Part shown: positions 17,594 to 57,530 of the stretch, piece after piece | Numbering within the stretch: position 1 is the first letter of the stretch | Layout: every line of letters begins with the position of its first letter | NCBI GenBank assembly: GCA_018608435.1 | Contig: JABAZV010000006.1 | Coordinates: forward strand, 31,692 to 95,691 | DNA: 64,000 bases | DNA from: Patescibacteria group bacterium | GTDB lineage: Bacteria > Patescibacteriota > Minisyncoccia > Phycocordibacterales > UBA918 | Direction: 5' to 3' | Program-made: the position numbers and the translations under genes | The notes under the pieces: model-generated | Database searches by the model: none | Seen by the model: only the letters and a program-made list of their open reading frames with translations | What the model was told of the DNA's origin: nothing

Positions 17594-18055
17594 ATGAAGC
17601 AAAAAGCCTCCATAAGTGACAAAGCGAAACAGGTTGGTAACGCTATGATAAAAACTGATATTAAGTCAGAAAAGTTGCTTTTGTATGCCTCGCAACCAGC
17701 AGCTGGCTTTCCGGCACCAGGAGACGATCTGGTTGAAGCTCCACTTGATTTAAATGATTTACTTGTAGAAAACCCTACCAGTACGTTTTTTGTTCGCGTG
17801 TCTGGTGATTCTATGGAAGGCGCGCGTATTTTTGAAGGCGATATTTTGGTGGTAGATCGTTCAATTGAGCCTTCTCATGGCCGGATTGTGGTAGCTGCTG
17901 TGTATGGTGAATTGGTTATAAAGCGTTTACAAAAAACTCCCACAGGATTAGCTCTGGTGTCAGAGCAAAAAGGATATGAGCCAATTATTATCGATGATGT
18001 GGATGGTTGTTTTATTTGGGGAGTAGCAATTGGTTCGGCCAGGGTTTTGCTGTAA
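17594..18055 (+). CDS. umuD: UmuD-like S24 peptidase (translesion synthesis accessory protein)
   Basis: AGFPAPGDDLVEAPLDLNDLLVENPTSTFFVRVSGDSM aligns with E. coli UmuD [38 protein letters not shown]. This includes the Ala-Gly self-cleavage site, the Ser nucleophile and the Lys in VIKRL. There is no N-terminal HTH, so it is not LexA. Confidence 0.85.
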   Translation: MKQKASISDKAKQVGNAMIKTDIKSEKLLLYASQPAAGFPAPGDDLVEAPLDLNDLLVENPTSTFFVRVSGDSMEGARIFEGDILVVDRSIEPSHGRIVVAAVYGELVIKRLQKTPTGLALVSEQKGYEPIIIDDVDGCFIWGVAIGSARVLL

Positions 18056-18058
18056 GTA

Positions 18059-19288
18059 ATGTTTATAATCTACGTCTTTAGTACTATGAAAAATCAACTT
18101 GAAAAAACAACACATAATCAAATTTTATATATAGCCATGCTCTGGCTATTTCTAGCACTAGCTCCTGCTGTGGCGCACGGCGCTAGTAATCAGGTGGCTG
18201 TATGGATACCGTGGTGGGCGGAAGAAGCAGGAGCAGAAGATGCCGCTGCTCAAATACGCGATCTAGACGTCATCTATCCTTTTGTTTTTGAAGTAGAGGC
18301 TGACGGAAGTCTTAGAAACATGGTGGATTTCAAGGATGATCATTGGGAAGATTTGTTTGATAAGGCTGATGATCGGCGCGTGGATGTTGTTCCTACAGTC
18401 ATGTGGTTTGCTGGCTCAGAAATACATGAAGTTTTAAGTGATAGGCGCAAGCGAGAAAACCATGTTGAAGAGATTGTCGATATGGTGCGCAAAAATCGCT
18501 TCGATGGTGTAAATATTGATTATGAAAGTAAGTTAGCTGAAACTATCGATTACTTCTCTCTCTTTTTAAAAGAACTTGAAGACGAGCTCGGTCGCCGCGA
18601 TCTCACTTGTACCATAGAAGCACGCATGCCTCCCGAGTCTCGTTGGATTAATCCTCCTGCAGTTATTGAATATGCTAACGACTACAAAGAAATGAATCGT
18701 CATTGTGATTGGGTAGAAATCATGGCGTACGACCAACAGCGAGCTGATGTAAAGTTAAATAACGAACGTCGCGGAGTGCCGTATTCTCCAGTGGCAGACA
18801 TTGACTGGGTAGAAAAGGTGGTTGATCTCGCACTAGAAGATATCGATGAAGATAAAATAATGCTAGGGATCCCAACTTACGGTCGAGCTTGGGATGTGAC
18901 AGTGGCTTCAGAGTGGTATCGTGACTACAATCTAGTTACGTCCCTTAACCCAAAAAGAATAATTGAGCTTTCAAAGAAGTATGATTCGCTGATTGGAAGG
19001 ACTGCTGGTGGGGAAGCTGTTATTACGTACTTTCCTGAAGACTCACCGTGGCGATTGCTTAACCAATTACCAGCCCCTACAGGAACGCCTAAAGGTTACG
19101 AAGCAGCCGCCAAGGCTCTGCTCGTGGCAACGTACGCAGATATCGAAATTCCAGTTCGTTTTGTTTCTTGGAGTGATGCGCAAGCGATTGAAGATAAGTT
19201 GGACTTAGCTGACAAATATGATTTGCGAGGAGTGGCGATATTTAAAGTTGACGGCGAGGAAGACAAAAATATGTGGGATTTATTTTAA
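18059..19288 (+). CDS. Secreted glycoside hydrolase family 18-like protein, encoded between umuD and umuC
   Basis: It has a signal peptide. DGVNIDYE fits the GH18 catalytic motif D-G-x-(D/N)-x-D-x-E. The N-terminal VWIPWW is GH18-like. The gene starts 3 nt after the umuD stop. Confidence 0.75.
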   Translation: MFIIYVFSTMKNQLEKTTHNQILYIAMLWLFLALAPAVAHGASNQVAVWIPWWAEEAGAEDAAAQIRDLDVIYPFVFEVEADGSLRNMVDFKDDHWEDLFDKADDRRVDVVPTVMWFAGSEIHEVLSDRRKRENHVEEIVDMVRKNRFDGVNIDYESKLAETIDYFSLFLKELEDELGRRDLTCTIEARMPPESRWINPPAVIEYANDYKEMNRHCDWVEIMAYDQQRADVKLNNERRGVPYSPVADIDWVEKVVDLALEDIDEDKIMLGIPTYGRAWDVTVASEWYRDYNLVTSLNPKRIIELSKKYDSLIGRTAGGEAVITYFPEDSPWRLLNQLPAPTGTPKGYEAAAKALLVATYADIEIPVRFVSWSDAQAIEDKLDLADKYDLRGVAIFKVDGEEDKNMWDLF

Positions 19289-19400
19289 GACAGTACTTCT
19301 TATTCAGAAAGATAAAGTGCCGACTCTAATAGAGTGCGGCATTTTATTTTGCCAGTTTTAGAACATTGCCGAAGACACGGTCGATGGATATACTACTTGT

Positions 19401-20651
19401 ATGTCAAAACCACTTATCGGCTTGCTTGATTGTAATAATTTTTTTGTGTCATGTGAGCGTTTATTCCGACCTGATTTATTGGGTCGGCCAGTTATCGTCC
19501 TCTCAAGTAATGACGGTTGCGTAGTGGCCCGTTCGCAAGAAGTAAAGGACATCGGAGTAGAAATGGGTGTCCCTTACTTTAAAATAAAGGACACTGTAAA
19601 AGAGCACGGAATAGCAACGTTTTCTTCACATTTTGCTCTGTACAGAGATATTTCCAGAAGAGTGTTTGCTGTAATGAAAAGGGAATTAGAAGTAGTGGAG
19701 CAGTACTCAGTTGATGAAGCTTTTTTTATTATAAACAAGGATCATACTGAAACTGTAGTTAATTTAAAATCAACCATTGAGAAACTTGTCGGCATTCCTG
19801 TTTCTGTTGGAGTAGGGGCAAGTAAAACTCAAGCTAAATATGCTAGCGAACTTGCTAAGAAAGGTTCTGGCATAAAGGTCCTTACTCCAATCGAATGGAA
19901 TAGTTTGGCAGATAGTATCCCTCTTGGCCAATTGTGGGGAGTTGGTGGCAAATCATCAAAGCGGTATAAACAGCACAATTTGTTTACTGTCAGTGATATT
20001 TTAAATGCGGATTCAGGCAGAATAGCGCAATTGTTTGGGGTGAATGGTATTCGCTTGCAGCAGGAATTATTAGGTGATTTAACCCCTAAAATAGAACAAA
20101 AGCATGCTCCGCAACAAAGCATTACGAGCTCTCGTTCTTTTGCAAATTCGGTTACTGAACTGTCGATTTTGTACGATGCTGTTGCTTACCATGTGCGTCA
20201 CGCGGCAGCAGACTTGCGTGCACAAAAGCAGAATGCTGGCAAGATAATAGTCTCAATTAGACCTGGTCGATACGGTGATTTTGTCTTGCGTGGTGGCTCT
20301 AAAGAAGCTGTTTTCACCTCGCCTACAAACGACACTGTTGCTCTGATGACTTGTGCAGAAAAGCTTGTGTGTGATCTGTATGAAAAAGGTGTTCCGTACA
20401 AGAAAGTAGGAATAACTCTTTCTTTATTGCGCCCTGTAGGGGAAAGACAGACAGCCTTGTTTGCTGACCAAACACCAGAAGCAGGGTCGAAGCTACTGGC
20501 CGCAGTCGACATTTTAAACCAAAAGGTAGGGAAGGAGGTTGTGCTGTTTGGCAGTCGACTACAAACTAAAAAATGGCAATCTCGTTCAGCCTCTCAGTCC
20601 CCCTCGTATACAACTAACTGGAAAGACATTGCTACAGCACAGGCTTCATAG
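19401..20651 (+). CDS. umuC: Y-family DNA polymerase, UmuC-like (error-prone translesion polymerase V catalytic subunit)
   Basis: The N-terminus IGLLDCNNFFVSCERLFRPDLLGRPVIVLSSNDGCVVARSQEVKDIGVEMGVPYF aligns with E. coli UmuC FALCDVNAFYASCETVFRPDLWGKPVVVLSNNDGCVIARNAEAKALGVKMGDPWF. A umuD homologue lies upstream. Confidence 0.9.
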   Translation: MSKPLIGLLDCNNFFVSCERLFRPDLLGRPVIVLSSNDGCVVARSQEVKDIGVEMGVPYFKIKDTVKEHGIATFSSHFALYRDISRRVFAVMKRELEVVEQYSVDEAFFIINKDHTETVVNLKSTIEKLVGIPVSVGVGASKTQAKYASELAKKGSGIKVLTPIEWNSLADSIPLGQLWGVGGKSSKRYKQHNLFTVSDILNADSGRIAQLFGVNGIRLQQELLGDLTPKIEQKHAPQQSITSSRSFANSVTELSILYDAVAYHVRHAAADLRAQKQNAGKIIVSIRPGRYGDFVLRGGSKEAVFTSPTNDTVALMTCAEKLVCDLYEKGVPYKKVGITLSLLRPVGERQTALFADQTPEAGSKLLAAVDILNQKVGKEVVLFGSRLQTKKWQSRSASQSPSYTTNWKDIATAQAS

Positions 20652-21127
20652 GACAAGTGTCTGTTTGTGGGGTTTTTAGTATCCGACATTTGTACCAGAG
20701 CCCGTTTAGCGCTCATGTCCGTTTGTGTGATTATTAGCCATTAAAACTAGGTGTTTTCTAAAGGAACAAAGGTCAGCTCAAAAAGGTTATCAACAGTCAA
20801 TATCGGACAGTTGCATAAAGACTTAGTACAATACTTTTAGATCGGTAGTAGTTAAGTCGTTTAAACATTTTTCTTCAATGCGCACCGACACCCGTTTTAG
20901 CCAACGTAAGTGTCGATTGCAAAAAAGTATTTTATTAAAATGTTTGTTGCGGCTATACAGATAAAATTTCACTAAAGGCTGAGTTTTCTCACATATTGTG
21001 AATTACTTTATCTCTCCACAAACAACTACTATCGACCAGTACTTCAAGAGTTTCTCAATAAAAAACAAATTAAAATATTGAGTAAGTTCTCAGTACAAAG
21101 TTATTTAAAATAATTATAAATATAAAC

Positions 21128-22207
21128 ATGTTCGCAAAAGCAACTAAAGTTGGCTTTGCGCAGCAGGTGGTCGCGACACTTGTTGCAAGCGCAGTACTTA
21201 TGTGGTCATTTGGAATGTACCACACTGCGCAAGCAGCTAACCTCACTTTAATTAGTGACACCCTCGGCACTTCGGAGCCGGCGGTGACCTCAACACACTC
21301 AATTGCCTTCACTATCCCAACCGGCTCTGCGCTGGCGGATGGTGACACGGTAACTATTACATTCCCCGTAGGCTTTACAGGCGTTGCAGCAGTAGCCGAT
21401 GCTAATACCGACATTACTGTCGGAGGAACGCTAGATGTTGATGGTTCGGCAACCGTCGCAGGCGCTGGCCAAAGTATTACATTTAATACTGTGGCTGCAG
21501 CGGCGGGGCAAGAAATAATAGTCGCGATCGATGATTTGATTATTACAAATCCAGCAGTAGTTGGTTCGTATGAAATCTCACTTGATACTGGAACAGGTGG
21601 AGATAATGGTAACACTCGTGTTGCCATTATCGACACTGTACTAGTTACTGCAGCAGTTCTTACAACTTTTGATTTCACAATCATTGGAACTGCAACTTCT
21701 ACAGCAGTTAACGGAACATCAACTACTGGCTCAACTACTCCAACTGCCGTACCGTTTGGTACCGTGTCAGCTGGAGAAGTTAACACTCTCGCTCAACGTC
21801 TAACTGTATCTACAAACGCACGAAACGGTTTTGTGGTTACGGTACAAAGTGACGGTGAACTAGAGTCTTCAAACGGAGCGATCATTGACAGCTTCACCAA
21901 CGGTACTGACATTGCAGTTGCAGGTACCGCTTGGGCATCACCTACAAACCTCGTAGCAGATGAAGCGACTTGGGGTCACTGGGGAATCACTTATGATGAT
22001 GACGCAACAGTAGATCTTGCAGCCAATGAATTTATTGCTGCTTCTACTACACCGCGAGAAGTCTTCAGTCACACAGCTGCAGCTGATGGAGTAACACCAA
22101 ACATTGGTAGTACAACTATTGGCTACCAGCTAGAGATTACTCCACTACAGGAAGCGGCCGATGATTACAGCACTATTCTGACATTCATTGCAACACCTAC
22201 TTTCTAG
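21128..22207 (+). CDS. Secreted surface protein (signal peptide; N-terminal about 60-aa domain paralogous to that of ORF 24360..26258)
   Basis: Cleavage looks to follow AQA. The N-domain is SDTLGTSEP...THSIAFTI...GDTVTITFPVGF. The 24360 ORF has SDTISDSGP...HTLNFIL...GSTFEITPPSGF. The opposite-strand ORF 21070..21786 is a shadow. Confidence 0.7.
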   Translation: MFAKATKVGFAQQVVATLVASAVLMWSFGMYHTAQAANLTLISDTLGTSEPAVTSTHSIAFTIPTGSALADGDTVTITFPVGFTGVAAVADANTDITVGGTLDVDGSATVAGAGQSITFNTVAAAAGQEIIVAIDDLIITNPAVVGSYEISLDTGTGGDNGNTRVAIIDTVLVTAAVLTTFDFTIIGTATSTAVNGTSTTGSTTPTAVPFGTVSAGEVNTLAQRLTVSTNARNGFVVTVQSDGELESSNGAIIDSFTNGTDIAVAGTAWASPTNLVADEATWGHWGITYDDDATVDLAANEFIAASTTPREVFSHTAAADGVTPNIGSTTIGYQLEITPLQEAADDYSTILTFIATPTF

Positions 22208-22668: not shown

Positions 22669-23763
22669 ATGACATCAATCCCTCATTTTTTATCGACCTA
22701 TTTTATATCATGTGCGAAATTGGTGGTTGTCGCCTTTTTTATTGTAGTTTTCTTTATTTTCCCCATACTTGCGACGGCGCAAGAAGAAGGGGTCGGTATT
22801 TCTCCTGCGACGATCGAAGAAACTATAGATCCTGGAGTGACAAAAGAATACGCGGTGACTATAGAGAACCTGAATAATAGTGAACAGAAATATTTTTTGT
22901 CCACTCGAAATATAAAAGGAGTAGAAGCTGGTGGTGTTCCTGTATTCGCTACAGATAATTTAGAGAAGACTGGTTATGAGTTAGCAGATTGGATAGATTT
23001 GTCTGTGACAGAAGTTGTCGTTCCTTCTCGCGGTAAAGTTCAGGTTCCTTTTGTACTAAGTGTGCCAGAAGCCGCTTCTCCTGGAAGTCACTTTGGAGGA
23101 GTTTTTATTTCGGTGGACCCTCCTGATATTGTGGGTAGTGGTGCAGCTGTGGGATATCAAGTAGCAAACATTATAAGCATAAGAGTTTCGGGTGACGCTA
23201 TCGAACAGGCTGGTGTACGTGAATTTTCAACTGTTAACTTTTTCCATAATTCACAAGATGTTGATTTTCAAGTAAGAATTGAGAACACAGGAAATGTTTT
23301 AGTGCGCCCCACTGGACCGCTTGAGATTTACAACATGTTAGGAAATAAAGTTGGTAACATCGTTTTTAACGAAAGTCAAAGCGGCGTATTTCCAGGAACG
23401 GTAGAGACTTTCTCAAATATAAATTGGACAGGGGATTCGCTTGGGTTCGGTCGTTATGAAGCGGTAGTTAGCCCGGTTTATGGTGATTTTGGAGCCATAA
23501 AGACCATGACAAGTACTGTTACTTTTTGGATTCTACCGATGAGCATTATCGGTCCTGCTCTTGGTGTGCTGGCTGTGCTGGTTTTACTTACATACATATT
23601 TGTGCGCATCTACATCAAGAGATCTCTTGCTCACATAACGCAGGGCAGGAGAATTGTTCGTAAGCGTAATCAGCAAGGGTCGTCAGCCTGGTTACTTGTT
23701 ACAGTAATGGTATTGGCGGTCACAGCTCTATTTCTCATTGTGTTGTTGGCTCTGTTTGCGTAA
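22669..23763 (+). CDS. Cell-surface protein with an N-terminal signal/TM, an Ig-like extracellular region and a C-terminal TM anchor (DUF916/DUF3324-like or COG1470-like architecture)
   Basis: GISPATIEETIDPGVTKEYAVTIENLNNSEQKYFLS resembles the DUF916 N-terminus pattern. There are two C-terminal TM helices. The assignment rests on pattern and architecture, not on a confirmed HMM hit. Confidence 0.6.
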   Translation: MTSIPHFLSTYFISCAKLVVVAFFIVVFFIFPILATAQEEGVGISPATIEETIDPGVTKEYAVTIENLNNSEQKYFLSTRNIKGVEAGGVPVFATDNLEKTGYELADWIDLSVTEVVVPSRGKVQVPFVLSVPEAASPGSHFGGVFISVDPPDIVGSGAAVGYQVANIISIRVSGDAIEQAGVREFSTVNFFHNSQDVDFQVRIENTGNVLVRPTGPLEIYNMLGNKVGNIVFNESQSGVFPGTVETFSNINWTGDSLGFGRYEAVVSPVYGDFGAIKTMTSTVTFWILPMSIIGPALGVLAVLVLLTYIFVRIYIKRSLAHITQGRRIVRKRNQQGSSAWLLVTVMVLAVTALFLIVLLALFA

Positions 23764-23791
23764 TTTACAATTGTGTGACATATTAAAACAT

Positions 23792-24238
23792 ATGGCATCT
23801 GACGCAATAAACAACAATGTGATACCGAAATTGAAGCAATTTTCGATGTATCATAAAGCATTGCGAATTGCTATGGCTGTCGCATCTGTCGCACTTGTGT
23901 TTGAAAGTGGTTTGGTTGATGATTCTACTGCTCGCATGTCGCAGCAAACTCATCAGTACTTGGCTAATGCAGTTGGCATGACAACTTCTGTTAGTCCAAC
24001 AGAGCTCAATCAGTACACCGCCGCCCTAACGGCAAAAGAAAAAGCTCTTGCTGATCGAGAAGCTGCCTTGGAAGAACGTGAACTATCGATCGGTTTGTCG
24101 TCTGGGGTTAGTACTCCAGGAAATCAACAGGCAACGTATATTTTGGCTAGCGTTCTGTTTATATTGTTGGCACTAATATTGCTAAACTACATTCTTGATT
24201 ACATGCGTTTGCGTCGAGAATCAGTCGTGCAAGTTTAA
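23792..24238 (+). CDS. Small bitopic membrane protein with a central coiled-coil segment (start trimmed to the ATG at 23792)
   Basis: The listed ORF starts at 23738, inside the upstream gene. The downstream ATG gives 148 aa with N- and C-terminal TM helices and a coiled coil (EKALADREAALEERE). Confidence 0.45.
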   Translation: MASDAINNNVIPKLKQFSMYHKALRIAMAVASVALVFESGLVDDSTARMSQQTHQYLANAVGMTTSVSPTELNQYTAALTAKEKALADREAALEERELSIGLSSGVSTPGNQQATYILASVLFILLALILLNYILDYMRLRRESVVQV

Positions 24239-24359: not shown

Positions 24360-26258
24360 ATGTTATCTCTAGCACTAAAGAAAGTGTGCCGATTATTACT
24401 ATTTGCACTGTTTGTATTTTCTGGTTGGCTAGTTGTGTCTACTGAAAGTGCGGAGGCAGCAAATATTATACAATACAGCGATACTATAAGTGATTCTGGT
24501 CCGAATCAATTAGCCAATCACACTTTAAATTTTATTCTCAACGCAGCAGCAGGAAGTGGTTCGACCTTTGAAATTACTCCTCCGTCTGGATTTACACTTA
24601 ATTCAACAACAACGTTTGGCGTTCGAAATGTTGAGCTTGTGGTAGATGGCGCCGTACGTTCTGCAGTTGATACTCCTACTGCTGGTGAAGATTCGGTTGA
24701 TATTACTGGTGGTTCTCCTGGTTTTATTAGCTACACTTTGGCTGACGATTACAGTATTCCGGCCGGTAGTGAGCTGACATTTAGAATCGGTAATCATACC
24801 TCCGGTGCCCTAGGAGCTGTCTCTTCTTTCAGTACTACTACTGGTACAACCACTACGCAAGCCGATGTGCCGCCAATACAGAACTCATCTGCTCTTGGGA
24901 GACATGATTTACTGCTTGAAGTATATGATGGTTCTTTGATCGCATCCACTGAGTTTGTTCTTTTTCTAAATAATAAGGTTAATCTACAAGGAATTGATAC
25001 GACAGAAGAAATTCCTCCTTTTCTTTTTAATGGTTCACCGACCAGTACTGTTGGCGGAACCACTTTGAGTGTAGAAATTTCTTTAGAGTCGGATGAGTTT
25101 GCTTTTTGTAGATATAGCACAACTTCGGGCACGGCTTTTACTTCTATGGATCCTGATTCATTCTCTAATACGGGTTTAATATTTCATTCGACAGTAGTTT
25201 CTATTGTTACTGGTCAACTCAACGTATTTTTTGTGCGCTGTATTGACGACGAAGGAAACTTTAATACAGAAGATTTTTTAATCTCTTTCGTCGTATCAGG
25301 TCAGCCAACCGGTACTGCTAACACCGAAGGTGAAACCAGTGGAGATGGAACTGGATCAGGAGATAGCGGTGGAGGAAGTGGTAGTGGATCAGGCGGAACC
25401 TCTGGTGATTCTGATGGTGAGCAACCAGAAGAAGGAAATTCTTCTGGAACTGGCGGTTCTGGTGGAGGTGGGGGTAGAACTTCTGGTGGCGGAGCTGGCG
25501 GTGGATTTGAAAATACAGATGCTTCGTATCGGAGTGGCGACGGACGCGTTGTAATTTCAGGTTACGCTTTTCCAGATAGTGACGTCACTATATTGATTGA
25601 CGGGCAGCTTCACGACACTGTAATAGCAGATGCTGACGGATCGTACTCCATTACTCTCGATGAAATAGCTCGTGGGGCTTATACTTTTGGAGTTTACGCG
25701 GTTGGTGACAATGATGTGAAGTCGTCAACATTCAGTACTTCCTTTACTGTAACTGGTGCTAGGACTTCTTCTTTGAGTAATATTAATGTTGTTCCGTCAG
25801 TACTGGTCGATCCTGACCCAGTTGATATTGGGCAAACTCTGACTATGTCTGGATATGCTTTGCCCAACGCGATTATTTCGATTGAAAACAGTCAACGTGA
25901 ATCAAGTATTGTAAAAGAAATTTCTGCTACTTCAAACAGTGATGGTTTTTGGTCGACTACAGTAGATACAGGTTCTTTCTCCCAAGATACATATCAAGTG
26001 CGGGTAAAGTCTGAGCAAGAGGATGGTGCTGAGACTGGATGGTCTAACTACACATATTATGGTGTTGGCGGAGAAGCTGAAGCTCCTCTTTTCCCCGATT
26101 TAAACCGAGACGGGTTTGTTAATCTTGTCGACTTCTCTATCTTACTTTTCTGGTGGGCAACAGACGGAGGTGACTCTGATCCACCGGCTGACATTAACCG
26201 CGACGGTAATGTGACTCTGACAGACTTCTCTATTCTGCTCTTTAATTGGACTGGATAA
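24360..26258 (+). CDS. Secreted protein with an N-terminal domain paralogous to ORF 21128, a Gly/Ser-rich linker, Ig-like domains and a C-terminal type-I dockerin
   Basis: It has a signal peptide. The C-terminus has DLNRDGFVNLVDFSILLFWW and DINRDGNVTLTDFSILLFNW. These are two canonical dockerin Ca-binding segments with D1-N3-D5-G6-V8-N/T9-D12 spacing. Confidence 0.85.
   Translation: MLSLALKKVCRLLLFALFVFSGWLVVSTESAEAANIIQYSDTISDSGPNQLANHTLNFILNAAAGSGSTFEITPPSGFTLNSTTTFGVRNVELVVDGAVRSAVDTPTAGEDSVDITGGSPGFISYTLADDYSIPAGSELTFRIGNHTSGALGAVSSFSTTTGTTTTQADVPPIQNSSALGRHDLLLEVYDGSLIASTEFVLFLNNKVNLQGIDTTEEIPPFLFNGSPTSTVGGTTLSVEISLESDEFAFCRYSTTSGTAFTSMDPDSFSNTGLIFHSTVVSIVTGQLNVFFVRCIDDEGNFNTEDFLISFVVSGQPTGTANTEGETSGDGTGSGDSGGGSGSGSGGTSGDSDGEQPEEGNSSGTGGSGGGGGRTSGGGAGGGFENTDASYRSGDGRVVISGYAFPDSDVTILIDGQLHDTVIADADGSYSITLDEIARGAYTFGVYAVGDNDVKSSTFSTSFTVTGARTSSLSNINVVPSVLVDPDPVDIGQTLTMSGYALPNAIISIENSQRESSIVKEISATSNSDGFWSTTVDTGSFSQDTYQVRVKSEQEDGAETGWSNYTYYGVGGEAEAPLFPDLNRDGFVNLVDFSILLFWWATDGGDSDPPADINRDGNVTLTDFSILLFNWTG
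26155..26255 (+). other. Dockerin type-I module (two 22-residue Ca-binding repeats) at the C-terminus of ORF 24360..26258
   Basis: The coordinates are approximate. The two segments are quoted in the entry for ORF 24360..26258. Confidence 0.8.
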
Positions 26259-26473
26259 GAGTCAGTTTAATAAACAGTTTATGATATTAAGCAGAGACCG
26301 TAACAATACATTTACGGTTTGTATAAAAGTGATGCACCACTCTGGTGTGTGACTTTTATATCGTAAGCAAAATGTTGTAAATTTAAATTTTGTTAAATTA
26401 AAATTTAAGCTACGAAAACCGTGTATCTCTTTGTTTTCTGTGGGTAAACCATAAACATTTTCTCTGACTACCG

Positions 26474-26479
26474 TATAAT
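26474..26479 (+). promoter_or_regulatory. TATAAT -10 hexamer 8 nt upstream of the hsp20 ATG (putative leaderless promoter)
   Basis: The sequence is ccgTATAATacttacatATG. There is no SD. I found no CIRCE or HAIR element. Confidence 0.35.
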
Positions 26480-26487
26480 ACTTACAT

Positions 26488-26973
26488 ATGTCCTTTCTGC
26501 AGAGACTAAAAGGTAGGGGAGTACGTGATGGTGACGACACGCTTCTTTCTGATGCTGAAGAAACAGCCGTCGACAAGGTTGCTCAGCTCCATGTTGATGT
26601 TTACCAGACTGAGCGGATGATTGTGGTTTACGCACAATCTGCTGGCGCTGACATGAATGACGTTCACGTTTCAATTGAAGGTGATGCGGATATCGTTTTG
26701 ATTGAAGGTCGTCGTGTGCGACCTGAGTACATTGTTTTCCCGCGAAAAAAGGTCAAAGGAGCTTTTGCTGCCGAAGAGTGCGAGTGGGGCGAGTTTTACA
26801 GGCGAATTATTTTGCCTGAAAGCGTTGATATTGACCAGGCGGATGCAAAGATTAAAAACGGAGTTTTAATACTAATTTTACCCTTGCTAAAGCCGAGCGA
26901 AAAGGAAAAGGTTAATCTTAAGGTTACAGGCGGCCGTAAAGAAGGGAAGCGCAAGGTAGCAAAATCTACTTAA
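26488..26973 (+). CDS. Hsp20/alpha-crystallin family small heat-shock protein
   Basis: The alpha-crystallin domain has the motif AKIKNGVLILILP (A..nGvL.i..P). Size and charge distribution also fit. Confidence 0.85.
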   Translation: MSFLQRLKGRGVRDGDDTLLSDAEETAVDKVAQLHVDVYQTERMIVVYAQSAGADMNDVHVSIEGDADIVLIEGRRVRPEYIVFPRKKVKGAFAAEECEWGEFYRRIILPESVDIDQADAKIKNGVLILILPLLKPSEKEKVNLKVTGGRKEGKRKVAKST

Positions 26974-26991
26974 TATAGTTCTATTGTTCTT

Positions 26992-28542
26992 ATGAAAACC
27001 ATCCGTATTGTAGATAAGATAATAACAGCAACACTTTTTTCTGTGGCTATGTTTGCCTTTTCAGCAGCTTCTGTTATGGCGGCGGACTTGGCTCTTTCTC
27101 CCAGCACAGGGTCTTACTCAGTTGGACAAACTTTTACAGTAGCTGTGCAAGCAGTGCCTGGTGGAGATAATGTTAACGCAGTTGAAACTACTCTGGAATT
27201 TGATCCTAGCGTTCTTTCTGTTGTCAGTATAAATAAAGATGGCTCCGCCTTTTCCTTGTGGACTACTGAGCCAGCCTTTTCAAACAGCGCCGGCACCATC
27301 ACTCTAGGTGGCGGAAGTCCGACGCCTTTTACCGCCACTTCCAAGATACTTAATGTTACGTTTAGAACAACAGGAGAAGGAGTTGGCTCGGTAACCTTTA
27401 GTGGTTCTTCAGTTTTGGCAGCTGATGGTAGAGGTACCGACGTTTATAAAAATTCTACCAATGGTACTTATACTATTGCTGTAGCCACAACTCCTACGCC
27501 AGAGCCTACTCCTACGCCTGTGTCTACACCTGAACCAGTGTCCCAAACACCGACTGAAGCAGCAGAGGAAGATGATGAAGAAGCTATTATTTTTGGCGAC
27601 CCGCCACGACCGCCTGAAGTTGGTTCTCAAACTTTTCTTGATCCAAATATTTGGTACGGTGACATAAACGGTCTTTTTACTTGGTCGCTTCCGTTTGATG
27701 TTAACGTCGTGGCTGTAGAAATTTCTGATGACCCAGAAAATAAACCTGAAGAAAACGAAGATGCAATCATTGATCCACCAGTTGAAGAGTTTATAATTAG
27801 CGAAGATAATGCCTCAGATGGAGTGCAATACGTTAGTGTAAACTTCAAAAACCAAGTTGGTTGGGGTGCGCCTACAAACAGGAAATTGCAGATCGACACT
27901 ACTTCGCCAGAGCCATTTGCAATTAATGTCCAAGCTGGAACTTCTCCAGATTCATTCCCTTTGCTTAAATTTGCTGCTGAAGATAAAACTTCTGGAATCG
28001 AATACTACGATATGACTGTGGCGGACAAAGAACCTGTCCGTATTACTCCTGACGAAGCAAAGCTTGGCTATTTACTTAAAGATCTTGAGGACGGTACGTA
28101 CACTGTAAAAGTGGTTGCTTCAGACATGGCCGGTAATACTCGTGAAAGTAGTGTTGCTGTATTGATCACTGCTGGTTGGGTGAAACCGGTTGAAGTCATT
28201 GATGAAACTTCTTTCTGGGACTACTTAACTTTCGTTAATCTTCTGATCTTCTTCTTAATCGTTACTATTATTCTACTAATGGTTTACGTCTGGTACTTGC
28301 TTAAGAGCACAAAAGAAAAAGATGAAAAATTGCGCCGAGAAACACGTGAAATTCAAGATCAAATGGAAAAGATTTTCTCTGCTCTCCGTGATGAAATTTA
28401 CGATCAAATCAACACCATAACAAAGCGAAAGCGGTTGTCAGCAAAAGAAAAAGAAACTGTAGCAGCTCTTACACAAGCACTAGAAGTATCCGAAACTCTG
28501 ATTGAAAAAGAGATCAATGATGTCAAAGCCATTCTGAAATAA
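26992..28542 (+). CDS. Membrane-anchored protein with an N-terminal cohesin-like domain, a Pro/Thr/Glu linker, a second beta domain, a single TM and a cytoplasmic coiled-coil tail
   Basis: It has a signal peptide. GQTFTVAVQAVPGGDNVNAVETTLEFDPSVLSVVSINKDG...GTITLGGG...ILNVTFRTTG...GSVTFSG follows the cohesin consensus (..fdl.YDp.vLe.vsv..). The TM is FVNLLIFFLIVTIILLMVYVWYLL. A C-terminal coiled coil follows. Confidence 0.75.
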   Translation: MKTIRIVDKIITATLFSVAMFAFSAASVMAADLALSPSTGSYSVGQTFTVAVQAVPGGDNVNAVETTLEFDPSVLSVVSINKDGSAFSLWTTEPAFSNSAGTITLGGGSPTPFTATSKILNVTFRTTGEGVGSVTFSGSSVLAADGRGTDVYKNSTNGTYTIAVATTPTPEPTPTPVSTPEPVSQTPTEAAEEDDEEAIIFGDPPRPPEVGSQTFLDPNIWYGDINGLFTWSLPFDVNVVAVEISDDPENKPEENEDAIIDPPVEEFIISEDNASDGVQYVSVNFKNQVGWGAPTNRKLQIDTTSPEPFAINVQAGTSPDSFPLLKFAAEDKTSGIEYYDMTVADKEPVRITPDEAKLGYLLKDLEDGTYTVKVVASDMAGNTRESSVAVLITAGWVKPVEVIDETSFWDYLTFVNLLIFFLIVTIILLMVYVWYLLKSTKEKDEKLRRETREIQDQMEKIFSALRDEIYDQINTITKRKRLSAKEKETVAALTQALEVSETLIEKEINDVKAILK

Positions 28543-28651
28543 ACAAACATACAATGAACACTCTAGCCAAAGTATCCAAATTAACTGATAATATATTGTA
28601 GCTCTATAAATAAGGGTATAACCAAAAAACCAATCCCCAAAAAAGTTAAAT

Positions 28652-28692
28652 ACCGCACATCCAAATCGTTGGATGTGCGGTATACTTATAAT
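28652..28692 (+). promoter_or_regulatory. Perfect 13-bp stem hairpin (ACCGCACATCCAA-ATCG-TTGGATGTGCGGT) abutting a TATAAT box upstream of the 5599-aa gene; putative operator or attenuator
   Basis: I read this in the sequence. TATAAT lies at 28687..28692, 6 nt after the hairpin. The GTG start of the giant ORF is at 28737. Confidence 0.35.
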
Positions 28693-28736: not shown

Positions 28737-31700
28737 GTGAAAAAAAATAAGCCTCACAACTCAAGCGAAAATAAAAATAAGAGCATTTTTAAAGCACCAT
28801 TCGGGATTTTGCAGCTTATTAATGGTTTTAAATTGTCATTAAAATTTACTCTAGCTGTCGCTGTTGTATTTAGTTTGCTTTTACTGCAACCGCCTGATGT
28901 TCAATCAAAACGTTCGACAAACATTAGCTTTGGTTCAGATCAGACCATCAATATTTTTCCGTCACAAGTTGAAACGACAGATTGGGCTGGACTTAACAAC
29001 GTTCTTATTCAGGATTTGCCGAACGATGCTCTGTACCAAAACTTTGGTGCTCAGTCATCAGCTTATGTTCCTTTGGCCGATTTGTTCGTTCCACAAAATG
29101 GCGAGCCTGAATTGATCAATAGTCAAGTACAGCCGCAAGCAGACAGTTCATCTTCAGACGGTAGTCAGCCTGCTTTGCCAAATGGAACTTCTGCTGCTGA
29201 CGCTGCCGGTTTTGTCGAGAATGATGCTATAAGTCTTTCTGGTGATCAGTCGACATCAACTCAGTCTGAAGAAGTGTCAAATGAAATTTCTGATAATCCT
29301 GTAACAGAAAGTGATTCGTCAAATGCTGATGAGACAGTTGTTGCTGAACCTTTGCTCGATGATGTTCCTGAAAAAGATGATGGTTTTTCTGTTCAGTCGG
29401 AACCAGAATCTGATGAAAGTACTGCTGCTGATGTTTCTGAAATAGAAGAGGAGATTGTTGTCGAAAGCGAAGTGGAAGTTGTTGCTGAACCTGTTGAAGA
29501 TTCGACGGCTGAAACTGAATCTTCAGAACCTGAACCTTCAGCTGAGCCAGAAGAAGCGATTTCACTGATTGATATTTTGCACCCAAAGTACGGAGTTTTT
29601 TCTGTAACTTCACAACTCTTTCCACTTATGCAGCTGTCGTTTGTTAGTACCACGGAACCGGTTTTAGAAGAATCTACTCCCCTTGAAACTGATTCAGGAA
29701 ATATTGTTGATGTAGAAGAAGATCAACCACTTCCTGAAGAAGCAGCTCCTGAAGAAACATTTTCATCATCAATTGCAAACGAAGGAGTTGTAGAAGAGAT
29801 TGATCCTCTGTCGCTTTCTGATGAAGTAGTAGAGATTGATACGACAACTTCTACATCTGAAATTTTGAATACTGAGTCATCTTTAAACACAAAAAGTATA
29901 GAGTCTCCAGTGGCCGACGATACTTCTTCAGCTTTGCAAGATTCTCCTGTGACATCTAATTCTTCATTTTTACATGAGATTACTTTGTCTAACTTCGATA
30001 CAGCCCCGCTCGATCCTGGGCAGTTTGTCCAAGGTATGCAGCTTAGACTTTCACTTGCAGCCCAGCTTAATGATCCTGTTGCTGACGGCGAACAAGCACC
30101 ATACATAGAAATATTATTTGGGCAAGGTGAATCGCTTGAAACTGTCGGTATTATTTTGCTTGAAGATGAAGTGTCAAATGCACTTAATGGTGGCTATTTC
30201 CTCTTCGCTTTACCTGAACTTTATGACATTGACAATCTCGCCAGCACCACGGTTTCTGTGCGTTACATGGGAGAGGCTGATTTGCTTGATGGAATGTTCC
30301 TTGATGCTGCTTGGCTCGAGCTTGATACGAAAATTATTACAAAAGAAGACCTTGAAGCTCGAGGTAATGCCGCAGCGATTAAGAAACTTGATTTGCCAAC
30401 AGCTAGTACGCTTATAAGCGATCAGGTTAATTTCCGTCGCGACGAAACCCCAGTCTTCAACTTGCGCTATAACTCAAAAAGAAACACTGTTCTGCGTGGT
30501 TTGCGTGACCTTTTCGGAAGAGATTTAGTGGAAGTTGAATCGGCTCTCGTTAAGCACCGTGGGACAGGTTTGTTAGGGATCACACCAGAGATTAATATTA
30601 CAAATGATGGTTTGCTTACCGTATCAATTAATGAAAAAGATAGGAAAAAACTTCGTCCCGGTCAGTATACGGTTGAGATAACATACAAAGAAGGAGGCGA
30701 GACTATCATTGATACTTTTGATTTCCAGTGGGGAATATTAACTACTAATCCCAATAAGTCAGAATATGAAGTAGGTGAGACAGCACAGATTTCCGTTGGT
30801 GTTTTGACTCCTACTGGACACACTGTTTGTGATGCAAATCTAGACCTGTACGTCACCGATCCTGAAGGATTTGTGTCTCGCTACCTAGTCGATCCGTCAG
30901 GTTTATGTGATGGAAATAATGTTATTGACGTGCCTGATTTCAGCACTTTTGTTCCAGTGACAACTGCAGGTGTGTATGAGCTGTATTTGGAGAGACTGGA
31001 CGATGATGGTTCTGTTCTTGGTTTTACTACAGACACTTTCAATGCTGTGCCTCTACAACAAACAATCAGTATTGAACGTACTGGGCCAACTCGTATTTAC
31101 CCACTTGCTCCTTACACAATGAGCTTGAAGGTTGATTCGGCTGGTGATTTTGATGGAACTTTGACCGAGTATGTTCCAGCTTCTTTTGTGGTTTTTGATA
31201 CTGACGCTAGTGTAGAGCGTGAAGGTGAGTGGCTTAAATTAGTTTGGGATTTATCTGTTTCGGCTAGTGGTACGGAAACCATTAGCTATCAGTTTGATGC
31301 TCCGGATATTTCTCCCTACCTCTTTACTTTAGGGCCAGCGCGGCTTGATTCTAACGACGCATCTACAGCTTCAAGCACCGAAAAAACGGCTAGAAATAAC
31401 GTTTTCATTGAACATCGCCGTTGGCAGATCGCGTCTGACGCGGTTGGGAAGATGTTGCTCTTCTGGGATGACGGTGCTGCTATTCCGGCAGGCTGGGTTT
31501 GTGTTTCTTGTGCACCGGCTGATCCTTTTTATCAAAGGTTTATTATGGGTAGCTCAACTTACAACTCTACTGGTGGTGCGGCTACTCATACTCATACTAC
31601 TAGCGGATCCGTTCTGGCGTCACTTTTATCTACGACAGAGAGTGGGTCAGGTACCATAGCGCCAGTGAGCCATACTCACACCTACACTCCGACTATCAGT

Positions 31701-34700
31701 GGTGAATCAAATCTTCCGCCTTATCGTCAGTTACGCGTAATCCGCTACGACACCGCGGCAGGAGAGCCTGCAACGATTCCGGCTGGAGCGATTGGTATAT
31801 TTGATGTTGCGTCCTCATCACTTCCAGCTAATTGGAATCGTTACGGTGCGCAAGATGGCAGTTTCATTTACGGTGAAGACACCCCTGCTACCACAGGTGG
31901 TACAACTACTCACACTCATGGTATTTCTGGAACAACCGGCGCTTCAGCTGGAGCTGGCACGCGTGTTCGTGGTGGCGGAACACAGGTCTCGGGTGCTGGC
32001 AATACTCATACTCACACTGTTACTGCTAGTAGCGACTCTCACAGCAATGAGCCACCTTACATAACTGTCTTATTGGCGGAGCTTTCTGTCGATTCTGCGC
32101 CAACTAATGGACTAATTGCAATGTGGGACGAAGATATTGATGATGGCTGGTTAAGCTTGTCAGCCGACAGCGAAGCATTCAGCAACCGTTTTATTAAACC
32201 AACTACAACTTACGGTACGACCGGTGGAGGTGAAACTCATGATCATGCCGACGTTACTGGTATTACTTCAAGTGCTCCAAGCGCAACTCAAAATGCACGT
32301 TCTGGTTCTTCTGGTTCTGATGGCACGCACACTCACTCAGTAAGCGTTACCGGATTCTCAACTGAGTCAAACTTGCCGCCTTATGTAACTGTTGTCTTTG
32401 GCAAGCGACAGGGAACTAGTCCGGTTTACGAACAGCTTTCTTCTCGTTGGTACGCTAATAATGAATCAGCCCAAACACCGACCGAACCATGGCCAAACGA
32501 CGCTGGAGTAATTGATTTGGCAGAAGATGAGCCGATTACTGCTACCAGCTCACCGGTGAAAAATGGTGAAGAAGTTCGTTTGCGAATTAATGTTGGTGTT
32601 ACAAATGCTACTTCTACTGCAGGAGAGGAATTCCAGCTCCAATACACTGCGGCCAATATTTGTACAGACGGATCTGCGGTGTGGAGTGATGTTGGTGATG
32701 TAGCGTCTAGCACAGCTTTTTGGCGCGGTTATAATAATGTCAGTATTACCGACCATGGAACTCTCTCTTCTACGCTCCTTGCTTCATCAACCGTCGAGGC
32801 TACTTACGAAGAAAACGGCTACTCCACTACCACACCCAATGATATTAGTGTAGGTGAGTATGGCGAGTGGGATTTTGTCTTGCAACACAACGGTGCCTTA
32901 GCTGGCACAAATTACTGTTTCCGAATGGTTGAGAAAGCCGGTGCGACTTTCCAGAGCTACACGCAGTACCCACAAATTTACACCAACGAGTCACCAAACC
33001 AGCCAACCCTAAGTAAGTTATTTGATGCTGAAAAAACAGCTTCTACCTCTCCTTGGTTTTATTTCGTTGCCAGTGACACTGAAGGGGAAAACATTCATTA
33101 CGAAATAGAAATAGCTGACAATTATGCTTTCGCTTCACCAGCTGTTAGCAAAGACACCATTTCCAATTCTTCCCAATTTGAAAACCAACTTCTAATCTCT
33201 GATAAAGCTCCTTTCCGTCAGGGTGAATTAATGAAGTTTACTCCCAGTGCAAGCTTCACAAATGGCACGACTTATTATTGGCACGTGCGCGCTCGAGATC
33301 CTGAGGGGTCAGACGATTGGAGTGAGTGGTCAAGTATCAATAGCTTTACTATTGATACTGCGCTGACAGCTTCTGCTTGGTTCCAAACGGAAACAGAACA
33401 ATTTGACGAAAACATTCTCGACAGGGTCGACACCGCTACCGATCAGGCTGACATTGCGGCTGGTTCTACCACTGCCGCCATGACAGGAGGTTTGATAGAT
33501 TTCACCGATGGTGAAATGGGAACAGCTTGGGATAGTCTGACATTTAACGAAACCGACGGCAGTGGCGTACTCTTGTATCAAATCGAGTATTTGGATAATA
33601 GCGACACATGGACGCTGATTCCAGATGTCGACTTGCCAGGAAACAGTACGGGCTTTAACACTTCACCGGTAAACTTATTATCACTTGATGTTGAGACTTA
33701 TAATTCCATTCGAGTGGTGGCTGATTTTAGTGCTAATACTGGTACACCAAGTTTGCAAGACTGGACAATAAACTGGGGTTATCGAGTAGATACTCCGATG
33801 ATCGCGAGTCTTTTTGCTAACGAACAAACAGGCACGACAACACCGACATTAGAATTTACTACGACCGATCCACAGAACGACAGTCTGACTTATCAGCTGC
33901 AGTGGTCACTCACACCTGATTTTGCCGCTTCAACAACGCGTACATCTGATGCTGATGCTGGGTTTACAAATATCAACACCGGCGCTGATCTCGATCCGTT
34001 TAACTCTGGCGATACAATTCAATTTACCGTGCAAGCAGCCGATGCTCTGACTGGTTCAACCACTTACTGGTGGCGAGTGCGGGCAAAAGACACTACAGGG
34101 GATGATGCTTATTCCTTCTGGACTGACGCTCAGAGCTTTACTGTAATTCCTGGGACTGAAGTTTCTACTTGGTTCCAAACATCAGCTGATCAATTTAGTA
34201 GTAATATTCTCTCTGGTACTACACCAATTGGTATTGGTGCTGTAACAGTAGCGACTACAGCCGTAGAAGCGATGATTGTTTACGGAGAAGGTACGCTTAC
34301 GTCACCACGTTATCGTCAGTGGGATGGTACAAATCTTGGCGCTGAAGATTCAATGCAAGATATTGACTCACCGTTAAAGTGGGCTGTTGTGCGGGCTGCT
34401 CCAACGCGTGAAGAATATGTCGCAGCAACAGTCGGGACTGATGCCGACGTGAACGCTCAAGTATTTTCGACTGGTAGTTGGGAGAATTTACAGGAAATGA
34501 CTATCAGTGTCGGTAACATTAACGCTCGTGGTTTTGATGTGGCATACGAAACGCTCTCGGGTGACGCTCTGGTTGTGTACTGTGACGGCGACGCTGACCC
34601 TAGCTATTACGTTTGGAACGGAACTAGTTGGACTAGCGGCGGAACTATAAATCTTGCTAGTATAAATAACTGCGAATGGATAAAACTCGCTGCTGATCCT

Positions 34701-50613: not shown

Positions 50614-50762
50614 CGCAAAATCTAGATCTTATTTGTCAGTTATTGTTTAAAGCAAAGCGTTCCTTTTGAGACCGTGGGCGTTCATTATCGACCTTTTTTA
50701 ATTATCCCTACCTCAGCCAAGTTAGGCGTAATTTTCTGCTTCAATCAGGTATAATCAACTAA

Positions 50763-57200: not shown

Positions 57201-57527
57201 GCTGTCTTTGAGGTCTTGGATTGAATCATCCAGATTAGCATCAGCTTCGAATTCTACGACTATACTTGAAAAACCTTCGCGCGAAGTAGAAGTAATTTTT
57301 TTAACGTTTTCTAAGCTTGTCAGACCACGTTCTATTTCATTTGTGATGAGAGATTCGACGTCGGCTGCAAGAGCGCCCGGATAAGCGACCGAAACTACAC
57401 CTACCGGAATAATAACTTCAGGTGAAGATTCGCGAGGAATACTAAGAATACTGTAAACACCTACTCCCAAAAGAGCGAGTAGAAACAGGTAGGCAAACTT
57501 GTTGTTTTTTATAAAGAAATCCCACAT
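54261..57527 (-). CDS. RND family efflux transporter permease (AcrB/HAE1-like, 12 TM, two large extracytoplasmic loops)
   Basis: The protein is 1088 aa. The N-terminus MWDFFIKNNKFAYLFLLALLGVGVYSILSIPRESSPEVIIPVGVVSVAYPGALAADVE parallels AcrB. The topology is the typical duplicated one. Confidence 0.9.
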   Translation of the reverse strand: MWDFFIKNNKFAYLFLLALLGVGVYSILSIPRESSPEVIIPVGVVSVAYPGALAADVESLITNEIERGLTSLENVKKITSTSREGFSSIVVEFEADANLDDSIQDLKDSVDVIERELPADAADASVSEVNFVDQPIITIGLSANLSDFEFSALADEVEREIETIAGVSRAEFSGVRDREVAIIVDQTALARYDMTLNEVINGLSNANLTFPIGQIINDGISYNVAFEGDITDSSEIANVSIAARGGQPVFIRDIAIVEDGLATGASLSRLSVEGKPSQNSITLNVYKQSGGDITRITSAVNSKITELSEKGAMLDGITTAIVLDSGDQIKKDLVRLSSSGLQTIILVVLLLIVAIGWREGLLAGAAIPLSFLFGFIGLYFSGNTINFLSLFSLILGIGILVDSAIVMVEGINRKMKDDVNIDKKQAAIEAIHEFSAPLISGTLTTVSMFAGLFIVSGVIGQFIASIPFTLIFLLFASLFVSLAIIPLIASVFLRRKSTSKLEERQVAFAHKLETWYRARLTPYMTSERKQNVFLAFLAAALVLAISLTVNVFAGLVAAPLVYQLSLLFSKWKATGFWTAFAKRLSVAVSFILTIGICFFIVGIIFPVYSPVAVTFFEQSDVDFIIVELEKPEGTTKEVTDIAIRRVEDFLYEESDIDSFAVTVGSGSDFGSGGSGEKFANVFVNLSLDRDSTSGEVVDSLRERFQPLTDLKVTVSQPSDGPPTGAAIIVKFLGDDLDELTRLANESARIFRSLPDAINVETSTNNNSTEFVLELDRDKATALGLNPFTISQLARAAVFGSEATSLTTLDEDIPVIVRLNVNNSDSVTNETANVTTIDALENISIPTRDGSIALSNLVTVKLRESSSVIYHEEGKRVVTITADITNGANARELQALAIERINAELSMSDSVELSTGGGETDESNKAFIEMGLALVVGILLMVGILVLQFNSYLHMRYVLSILPYSLIGIMLGLAVTSNPLSFPSIMGFIALSGIVVNNSILLIDMMNNLRLKNPQQSIEGIVLEAAGNRIRPILLTTITTVFGMLPLAYAGDLWAPLAYAVMFGLVFSVIITLLLIPILYVRNPGKIEK

Positions 57528-57530
57528 AGA

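Follow-up and report, generated by a model that had tools for sequence, protein, structure and literature searches.

In the window analysed in this work, i.e. the whole stretch of 64,000 nucleotides of contig JABAZV010000006.1 from a Patescibacteria group bacterium, we identified a secreted dockerin protein and a membrane-bound cohesin protein encoded almost side by side within a conserved gene module. The first of them (DOC, 632 aa; 24360-26258) carries, as judged from its own sequence and those of its orthologs, a real two-repeat type-I dockerin, and the second (COH, 516 aa; 26992-28542) begins after its signal peptide with what sequence profiles and a structural model both indicate to be a real cohesin; the two open reading frames (ORFs) lie on the + strand with one 161-aa ORF between them. 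It appears rather likely that Ca-dependent docking tethers the secreted DOC to COH, a transmembrane stalk, and we infer both the binding and its Ca dependence. Since this matched pair is kept in a surface gene module across distant relatives, it probably fastens a surface protein and does not build a cellulosome.

The original prediction for this locus described the pair as standing alone, a view that we had to abandon, although the profile, fold and gene-order checks proposed for it came out in its favour: DOC and COH are embedded in a conserved module that, according to sequence comparisons, consists of a Pam-pilin-like gene, a WxLIP-like membrane protein, a small transmembrane (TM) protein, DOC, an HSP20-like protein, COH and a giant surface protein. 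How ultra-small bacteria belonging to the candidate phyla radiation (CPR) attach to hosts and surfaces is a central question, most of their lineages, including those of the Paceibacteria type, being largely uncultivated. The locus is a concrete candidate for an attachment device, conserved from ~75% down to ~33% identity and genetically linked with both a pilus-like module and a giant protein, and it extends cohesin-dockerin biology to a membrane-anchored, tailed form with non-enzymatic cargo in a major uncultivated radiation. Both modules are small, readily expressed and expected to bind tightly, and could serve as pull-down or labelling handles in enrichment cultures.

In composition and genes the window resembles a Patescibacteria (CPR) genome: it has a GC content of ~43% and is populated by numerous large secreted proteins, recognisable metabolic genes being scarce. 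A six-frame motif scan of the 64 kb retrieved no dockerin Ca-loops outside DOC, and Pfam scans of the large ORFs (the giant gene, 6409-12891, 54261-57527, 2050-4038, the family 18 glycoside hydrolase (GH18) gene and the genes of the locus) detected no second cohesin or dockerin. Therefore, with DOC as the sole dockerin and COH as the sole cohesin in 64 kb, the pair is one-to-one within the window.

The dockerin protein

DOC starts with a Sec-type signal peptide (aa 1-33, ending in AEA before an A), which is followed by an N-terminal pilin-type beta-sandwich (aa ~34-203), a weakly modelled Cys-containing beta domain (aa ~236-311), a Gly/Ser-rich linker that is disordered in the AlphaFold2 (AF2) model (aa 314-387), two immunoglobulin (Ig)-like domains (aa 392-570), which like the N-terminal beta domain are modelled with confidence, and the dockerin module at the C-terminus (aa 577-632; 26088-26255). 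Pfam matches comprise Dockerin_1 and Big_6, and no catalytic domain is present. As the protein has a signal peptide and our searches found in it neither a TM segment nor a sorting signal, DOC needs an external anchor.

The two dockerin segments that had been quoted for the end of this ORF are present exactly as given, the C-terminus reading DLNRDGFVNLVDFSILLFWW ... DINRDGNVTLTDFSILLFNW followed by TG and the stop codon. The search with Dockerin_1 (PF00404) that had been proposed as a check yielded 26.5 bits over aa 580-626, above the gathering cut-off of 22.9 bits; the same profile matched 37/37 aligned DOC orthologs (best E 8e-10), and the DOC family profile in turn matched the CelS dockerins 1daq and 2mte (E 0.002). 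The repeats, DLNRDGFVNLVD and DINRDGNVTLTD, are two tandem segments of ~22 residues, each made up of an F-hand Ca loop and a helix. Across 58 orthologs, positions 1, 3, 5 and 12 of the Ca loop are invariant or nearly so in both repeats, position 9 is N in the first repeat and S, N or T in the second, and the motif DFSILLF(W/N)W of the helices hardly varies. This module is also the most conserved part of DOC (0.82).

The cohesin protein

The layout of COH is that of a bitopic membrane protein with the cohesin at its distal end: a signal peptide, the cohesin module (aa 31-165; 27082-27486), a Pro/Thr/Glu-rich linker of low conservation (0.43) that is disordered by its predicted local distance difference test (pLDDT) score of <50 (aa 166-198; 27487-27585), two Ig/fibronectin type III (FnIII)-like stalk domains seen in the AF2 model and the alignment (aa 199-395; 27586-28176), a TM helix (aa ~411-433) and a cytoplasmic helical hairpin (aa 434-516), these last two together encoded by 28222-28539. 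The stalk domains are further indicated by a weak Big_13 match, a SiiE-like motif and Foldseek matches to FnIII tandems. No match to S-layer homology (SLH) repeats or to a sortase signal was found in COH, its anchor being the TM helix with the cytoplasmic tail.

The second of the profile searches suggested beforehand, with Cohesin (PF00963), matched aa 41-162 at 29.6 bits (gathering cut-off 24.1 bits), a segment that includes the quoted ETTLEFDPSVLSVVSI, and precomputed PF00963 matches exist for most of the 120 COH homologs listed. Comparison of COH with the Protein Data Bank (PDB) by sequence, using both the single sequence and the family profile, matched no cohesin, and the fold was therefore examined by means of a structure model. 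The AF2 model reaches a mean pLDDT of 81 and ~90 over aa 31-163, which form a nine-strand sandwich, and its top Foldseek matches in the PDB are cohesins with TM-scores of 0.72-0.79 (6kgf/6kge, 1g1k, 2xdh and 2vo8); the figures are 0.75 for 1g1k (2.5 A, 25% identity), 0.79 for the non-cellulosomal cohesin of Archaeoglobus fulgidus (2xdh) and 0.78 for that of Clostridium perfringens (2vo8). Many of the PDB cohesins matched by the model were solved bound to dockerins. The model further shows a helix for the signal peptide, disorder at aa 167-197 and two more beta domains at aa 200-392. The outcomes that were to speak against the original prediction, an N-domain with no cohesin match or with an unrelated Ig-like fold, are thus not what AF2 and Foldseek give.

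Within the module, conservation averages 0.81 over the predicted strands 3, 5, 6 and 8 but 0.68 over the other sheet (Mann-Whitney p = 0.002, with the canonical strand numbers taken from the predicted strand order), and it reaches 0.94 in loop 8-9. Conservation on strands 3/5/6/8 is the pattern to be expected of a working dockerin-binding face.

Conservation of the gene pair

Hundreds of full-length homologs of both proteins were found at 57-76% identity (716 homologs in the case of DOC), in Patescibacteria only. For the analysis of gene order we took one genome per species, i.e. 80 loci, ~60 of which had sufficient flank (tblastn). In essentially all of these ~60 loci the order is Y-family polymerase, o21128, o22669, o23738 (the pilin-like, WxLIP-like and small TM protein genes of the module, named after their start positions), DOC, HSP20, COH and the giant gene. 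The question that had been raised of whether orthologous loci keep the gene pair together is hence answered in the affirmative, and this applies also at ~33-35% identity.

Many genomes (L025-L077) carry cargo at a single insertion spot between the o23738 and DOC orthologs: 1-6 tandem N-terminally anchored TM proteins of ~267 aa that resemble formylglycine-generating enzyme (FGE)-sulfatases, an MgtE-like protein (330 aa), an ATP-binding cassette (ABC) exporter (~590 aa) and EamA transporters. We had considered these extra genes as possible minor pilins and rejected the idea on account of their identities. The adjacency of DOC, HSP20 and COH is kept despite the unrelated cargo upstream of DOC; in one locus (L001) a 1956-aa FG-GAP protein is encoded between DOC and HSP20.

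The pair persists at much larger distances. In the P0329 lineage (L090/L091) the order is pilin-like, chaperone-like, small TM protein, DOC, HSP20 and COH, with 33-35% identity to the window for COH, DOC and HSP20 and 39-41% for the pilin-like and chaperone-like proteins; the DOC of these loci has a two-repeat dockerin, and the motifs of the cohesin face are conserved. In a third distant lineage with a different gene order, genes with Dockerin_1 and Cohesin matches also adjoin. Searching exhaustively with the profile of COH, HMMER collected 1,634 clusters at 50% identity (E <= 1e-30), and the family comprises forms of ~580 aa with the cohesin and forms of ~350 aa without it. One distant relative, P0284 (813 aa), carries the cohesin module twice along with two hydrophobic segments; here the stalk protein has apparently been duplicated in tandem or fused.

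Loss of cohesin and dockerin

The most telling single case of co-loss is the double lesion of locus L082, found in one metagenome-assembled genome. An in-frame deletion has removed precisely the cohesin module from its COH gene (9962-11101), and its DOC gene is a remnant (8949-9321) in which aa 9-96 are joined to aa 562-598, i.e. into the first dockerin repeat, before a stop. The former pilin position of this locus (6497-7237) looks decayed as well, while downstream of COH there is a pilin-like copy that is intact. Two further loci encode a cohesin-less COH and have no DOC gene: L092, where the Y-family polymerase and HSP20 genes are still present, and L094, where COH is alone. An intact DOC gene accordingly occurs in 0/3 of the assessable cohesin-less loci, and the Ig/FnIII-like stalk domains are kept in the cohesin-less homologs. 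Overall, 58 loci have both cohesin and DOC, one has the cohesin without DOC, none has DOC without the cohesin and three have neither (Fisher p = 1e-4, the loci not being phylogenetically independent). Natural variation of this kind ties the two modules together and lends their docking indirect support. An additional candidate for a cohesin-less homolog, P0401 in L088, proved to be a gene call cut by the contig end and was left out of these counts.

Proposed attachment mechanism

In the mechanism that we propose, COH would be exported by the Sec pathway and held in the cytoplasmic membrane by its one C-terminal TM helix, while its two Ig/FnIII-like domains and the Pro/Thr linker would hold the cohesin away from the membrane. 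DOC, likewise exported by Sec but itself lacking any anchor to membrane or wall, would be retained by plugging its two-repeat Ca-binding dockerin into the 8-3-6-5 face of the COH cohesin, and once docked would present its N-terminal domains of pilin type on the surface of the cell, held by a long Gly/Ser tether. The pair would be the attachment device of an envelope module found in a large clade of Patescibacteria (CPR of the Paceibacteria/Kaiserbacteria type), with a presumed role as surface adhesin or pilus-associated subunit in the contact with host or substrate.

The pilin-like block and the giant protein

Upstream of the pair, the secreted protein o21128 (359 aa; 21128-22207, + strand) has an N-terminal sandwich homologous to the N-domain of DOC. 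The paralogy between the two proteins that had been noticed from the sequence is real but limited to the N-terminal ~110 aa: BLASTP of DOC against o21128 gives E 7e-6, and alignment of the two families with hhalign gives 98.3% probability and E 1.1e-14 over ~105 columns. The o21128 protein also matches the NCBIfam profile CPR_Pam_pilin_C (NF058581) at 19.7 bits (E 7e-4, profile positions 3-148/148), below the cut-off of 55 bits; no WxL-domain Pfam match was found in its family, which gave a weak BslA match only. An antisense ORF of 238 aa (21070-21786, - strand) lies wholly within this gene and is probably a shadow ORF from the Thr/Ala/Val-rich coding strand and not a gene. The next product, o22669 (22669-23763, + strand), is a secreted protein of two domains that resembles WxLIP (DUF916 type), has TM segments at its C-terminus and matches WxLIP_PGBD at 23.9 bits, short of the 27.3-bit cut-off, with no DUF3324 match listed; in its family, WxLIP_PGBD is found in 28/29 members (E <= 0.01, best 1.5e-8) and fn3_5 in 14/29. 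From its sequence we regard it as a candidate for a chaperone that is anchored in the membrane, or for a partner, of the pilin-like protein. The third gene, o23738 (23738-24238, + strand; the likelier start is the ATG at 23789), is also part of the distant L090 module; its small, conserved product has a coiled-coil-like stretch bordered on either side by a hydrophobic segment.

On the other side, the giant surface protein (5599 aa; 28737-45536, + strand) combines matches to DUF2341 (61 bits) and Ig_Rha78A_N with several long internal repeats and is secreted or anchored. Its gene is always the next after COH in close relatives and is missing from L082, L083, L089, L092 and L094, i.e. from loci without DOC or without the cohesin; in L090 it is replaced by genes for 479 aa and 876 aa, the product of the latter being 33% identical to the C-terminus of the giant protein. 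A similar C-terminal motif had suggested a Pam-type acceptor domain at the end of the giant protein, a possibility that we discarded (hhalign 0.1% probability, no NCBIfam match).

This neighbourhood bears on a more specific form of the docking explanation, in which DOC would be the terminal, cell-proximal subunit of a Pam/WxL-type donor-strand fibre made of o21128, with o22669 as its chaperone and COH as a PamR-like anchor; the dockerin would fasten the completed fibre to COH, and DOC would act as an adaptor at the base of a pilus. Consistent with it, matches that span the entire CPR_Pam_pilin_C profile are found in 21/29 members of the o21128 family (best E 3e-7), the o22669 family combines its WxLIP_PGBD matches with C-terminal TM segments as in PamC/D and WxLIP, the N-domain of DOC is homologous to that of the pilin and no Pam acceptor C-domain is found in the N-half of DOC, COH minus its cohesin has a PamR-type architecture, and the whole gene set is kept together at 33-41% identity. 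However, all Pam matches, including that of the L090 ortholog of o21128 (21.6 bits), are far under the NCBIfam cut-off (~20 vs 55 bits), and fold searches with the DOC model give generic Ig matches only. Moreover, unrelated genes often lie between the pilin block and DOC, which marks the two as separable units, L082 and L083 retain pilin-like and chaperone-like genes without DOC, and the Pam paper reports no cohesin or dockerin and assigns Pam mainly to Saccharimonadia and Microgenomatia. We regard the pilus-base arrangement as speculative and doubtful, if conceivable.

Alternative explanations

Returning to the docking of DOC on COH, a number of observations argue against it or limit its support. 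Unrelated neighbours (GH18, Y-family polymerase, LexA-like) are syntenic too, and clade-wide collinearity may explain part of the synteny; it was for this reason that the more distant lineages described above were compared. L092 and L094 miss the whole module, so that their losses do not single out the pair, and L083 keeps an unusually diverged cohesin, the DOC gene being absent from its 20-kb locus; this cohesin could have another partner or be decaying. A mirror-tree comparison of dockerin and cohesin over 58 paired orthologs gave r = 0.42, which is not above that of control domain pairs. The AF2 model has a pLDDT <50 over the dockerin (aa 577-632), its alignment being shallow and Ca absent from the model, and the strand numbering of the cohesin face was made without an inspected superposition.

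Some of these points would suit a different explanation, according to which both modules are genuine but are not mutual partners, their ligands being encoded elsewhere or found on the host and their adjacency an inherited gene order. The synteny of unrelated neighbours, the cohesin of L083 with no DOC gene nearby and the lack of a specific co-evolution signal in the mirror-tree comparison fit this explanation, and orphan cohesins or dockerins are carried by many non-cellulosomal genomes. We nevertheless consider it improbable in view of the one-to-one occurrence of the modules in 64 kb, of an adjacency that survives 33-35% identity and recurs in a third lineage with another gene order, of the deletion of the cohesin and decay of DOC within one genome (L082), and of the fact that an intact DOC was never seen alongside a cohesin-less homolog.

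In Foldseek, DOC at full length is best matched by proteins of S-layers and of biofilm surfaces (7ptp, E 9e-9; 9g93; 6qx4), which could suggest a two-component surface layer analogous to the archaeal SlaA/SlaB, with DOC as an abundant canopy or S-layer-like protein, COH as its membrane stalk and cohesin-dockerin as the joint that connects them; the 1:1 gene pair and the stalk-plus-TM architecture of COH would fit. The TM-scores of these matches are only ~0.1-0.16, though, and they reflect generic tandem Ig domains; the 70-aa disordered Gly/Ser tether of DOC is ill-suited to a lattice, and several lineages can dispense with DOC and the cohesin, which makes such a layer very unlikely.

Finally, a minimal cellulosome- or chitinosome-like display of enzymes, for which a secreted GH18 (18059-19288) encoded 5 kb upstream and syntenic in many relatives could be invoked, is essentially refuted by domain content: this GH18 has no dockerin, as had been stated from the start, and neither has the polysaccharide deacetylase protein of the window, the sole dockerin is on a non-catalytic protein, COH has a single cohesin and no carbohydrate-binding module (CBM) and is hence no multi-cohesin scaffoldin, and the Y-family polymerase gene separates GH18 from the module. 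The non-cellulosomal character attributed earlier to the locus is well supported by one cohesin, the absence of a CBM and a single dockerin that is not on an enzyme.

The cytoplasmic tail of COH and the HSP20-like protein

The original prediction gave COH a single TM helix and a cytoplasmic coiled coil of ~110 aa. The TM helix and the cytoplasmic location of the tail agree with the predicted topology; the tail itself is of ~83 aa and is modelled by AF2 as a helical hairpin and not as a long coiled coil, with one helix continuing from the TM segment (aa 408-477) and a second at aa 484-515. This hairpin is the most conserved part of COH (0.83-0.88 vs 0.74 for the cohesin), which backs the earlier idea that the tail matters. 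Its motif EIQDQMEKIFSALRDEIYDQI...ALEVSE.LIEKEI.DV..IL (28291-28539) persists in very distant members of the family, with or without cohesin (P0256, P0260, P0286, P0308, P0320, P0329 and P0362); judged by these matches, the core of COH is a widespread membrane-protein core of CPR bacteria.

The ORF between DOC and COH (26488-26973, + strand) encodes a 161-aa protein of the HSP20/alpha-crystallin family, as indicated by Pfam HSP20 (39.8 bits) and synteny, which has no signal peptide and is therefore presumably cytoplasmic. Among close relatives it is 66-87% identical, with an invariant N-terminus (MSFLQRLKG). Its gene lies directly upstream of COH in nearly every lineage having it, with a 19-nt gap in the window, a 4-nt overlap in L090 and abutting ends in L082, and this coupling persists at ~34% identity and in the cohesin-less loci L082, L089 and L092. 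A gene coupling of such depth between HSP20, stalk and tail was unexpected. The conserved hairpin and the coupled HSP20 gene suggest, by inference only, a cytoplasmic partner for the tail; inside the cell the COH hairpin would probably engage such a partner, the HSP20-like protein being the obvious candidate. The conserved hairpin together with the abutting or overlapping HSP20 gene thus supports the notion, put forward earlier, of a coupling of the docking module to the cell interior. Between COH and the giant gene, a consensus scan found a perfect 15-bp hairpin (28650-28683), possibly the end of an HSP20-COH transcription unit; in the promoter and terminator scans, counts were not above those of shuffled sequence.

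It is tempting to speculate that the seven-gene block as a whole is an unrecognised and very widespread surface organelle of CPR bacteria, a donor-strand fibre or giant adhesin fixed by the cohesin-dockerin joint, with a membrane-spanning base coupled inside the cell to an alpha-crystallin-type protein, although we regard this as less likely to be right than wrong by a wide measure. If true, it would provide a trans-envelope link for assembly control or signalling in host attachment.

Comparison with known systems

The closest parallels of COH are the single-cohesin anchoring scaffoldins OlpA/OlpC and SdbA of C. thermocellum and ScaE of R. flavefaciens, in which a cell-fixed cohesin on a linker captures one dockerin protein; the COH model also matches the cohesins of OlpC (4dh2) and OlpA (3ul4) in Foldseek. 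Unlike these, COH uses for its anchoring no SLH repeats or sortase signal but a TM helix at the C-terminal end that continues into a conserved cytoplasmic tail, its DOC cargo is an Ig-rich pilin-like structural protein and not an enzyme or scaffoldin, and the organism is a CPR bacterium without a cellulosome. The A. fulgidus cohesin (2xdh) and the C. perfringens GH84C/GH33 cohesins (2w1n, 2vo8), with TM-scores of 0.78-0.79 to COH, likewise operate outside cellulose degradation, but the C. perfringens modules join secreted glycoside hydrolases to one another, unlike COH and DOC. To our knowledge, and judging by the entry descriptions, the combination of TM anchor, cytoplasmic tail and pilus-like operon is found in none of the A. 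fulgidus and C. perfringens systems.

As to the rest of the module, the recently described Pam pilus, a CPR-specific surface appendage from which the profile CPR_Pam_pilin_C derives, is built from a pilin in which an N-terminal sandwich is combined with an acceptor domain at the C-terminus, with membrane-anchored PapD-like chaperones (PamC/PamD) and a terminator, PamR, composed of two FnIII domains and a TM helix; its operons, reported chiefly from Saccharimonadia and Microgenomatia, include as described neither cohesin nor dockerin nor HSP20 (bioRxiv 10.64898/2026.03.03.709456). PamR parallels COH minus the cohesin in general architecture only, and the homology of the o21128 C-domain to the Pam pilin is weak (~20 bits vs the cut-off of 55). 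The membrane-anchored WxLIP of Firmicutes, with two Ig-like domains, has been proposed to hold secreted WxL proteins via strand insertion (PMC10599100). These WxL/WxLIP (Csc) clusters resemble o22669 in the DUF916 match and in the succession of two Ig-like domains and a C-terminal TM segment, but as described list no cohesin-dockerin pair (PMC10599100); the pilin-like o21128 family has no WxL-domain Pfam match.

Neither the pairing nor the module was found described in searches of the full-text literature, some of which were aimed at cohesin or dockerin in these lineages, although some homologs are already labelled 'cohesin domain-containing' or 'dockerin type I domain-containing' in public records. 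The nearest items are the dockerin-rich giant proteins of Omnitrophota and SEML1_0315, a dockerin-domain envelope protein of the cultivated saccharibacterium Southlakia epibionticum that was scored as essential in a transposon screen, with no mention of a cohesin (PMC10633639). The latter is, like DOC, a dockerin-domain protein of a CPR bacterium, and its essentiality indicates that dockerin modules can matter for the epibiotic lifestyle. What sets the locus apart from the anchoring scaffoldins and the non-cellulosomal pairs is the TM anchor with its conserved cytoplasmic tail, the non-enzymatic pilin-like cargo, the linkage to a pilus-like module and a small heat shock protein-like gene, and the host lineage.

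Other features of the window

Several genes outside the module deserve mention. A 662-aa protein (2050-4038) with a weak lamin-tail-domain match has a C-terminal GVDTG_CTERM match of 25.6 bits (NCBIfam cut-off 29) and may, from this motif, carry a C-terminal sorting signal of CPR type. In the 2160-aa multidomain secreted protein encoded at 6409-12891, a glucose/sorbosone dehydrogenase beta-propeller occurs together with PKD, with two domains of the polysaccharide deacetylase type and with three Big_7 domains. At 17594-20651, a LexA/UmuD-like S24 peptidase, the secreted GH18 and the Y-family DNA polymerase are encoded in a row that is syntenic with the module in many relatives, GH18 being oddly sited within what appears to be an SOS-type pair. 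The general view is that CPR bacteria do not have a typical outer membrane; the window encodes on the - strand (54261-59069) an AcrB-type resistance-nodulation-division (RND) transporter (556 bits) and a membrane-fusion adaptor protein, and a MacB-like ABC pair lies near this transporter at 49288-51977.

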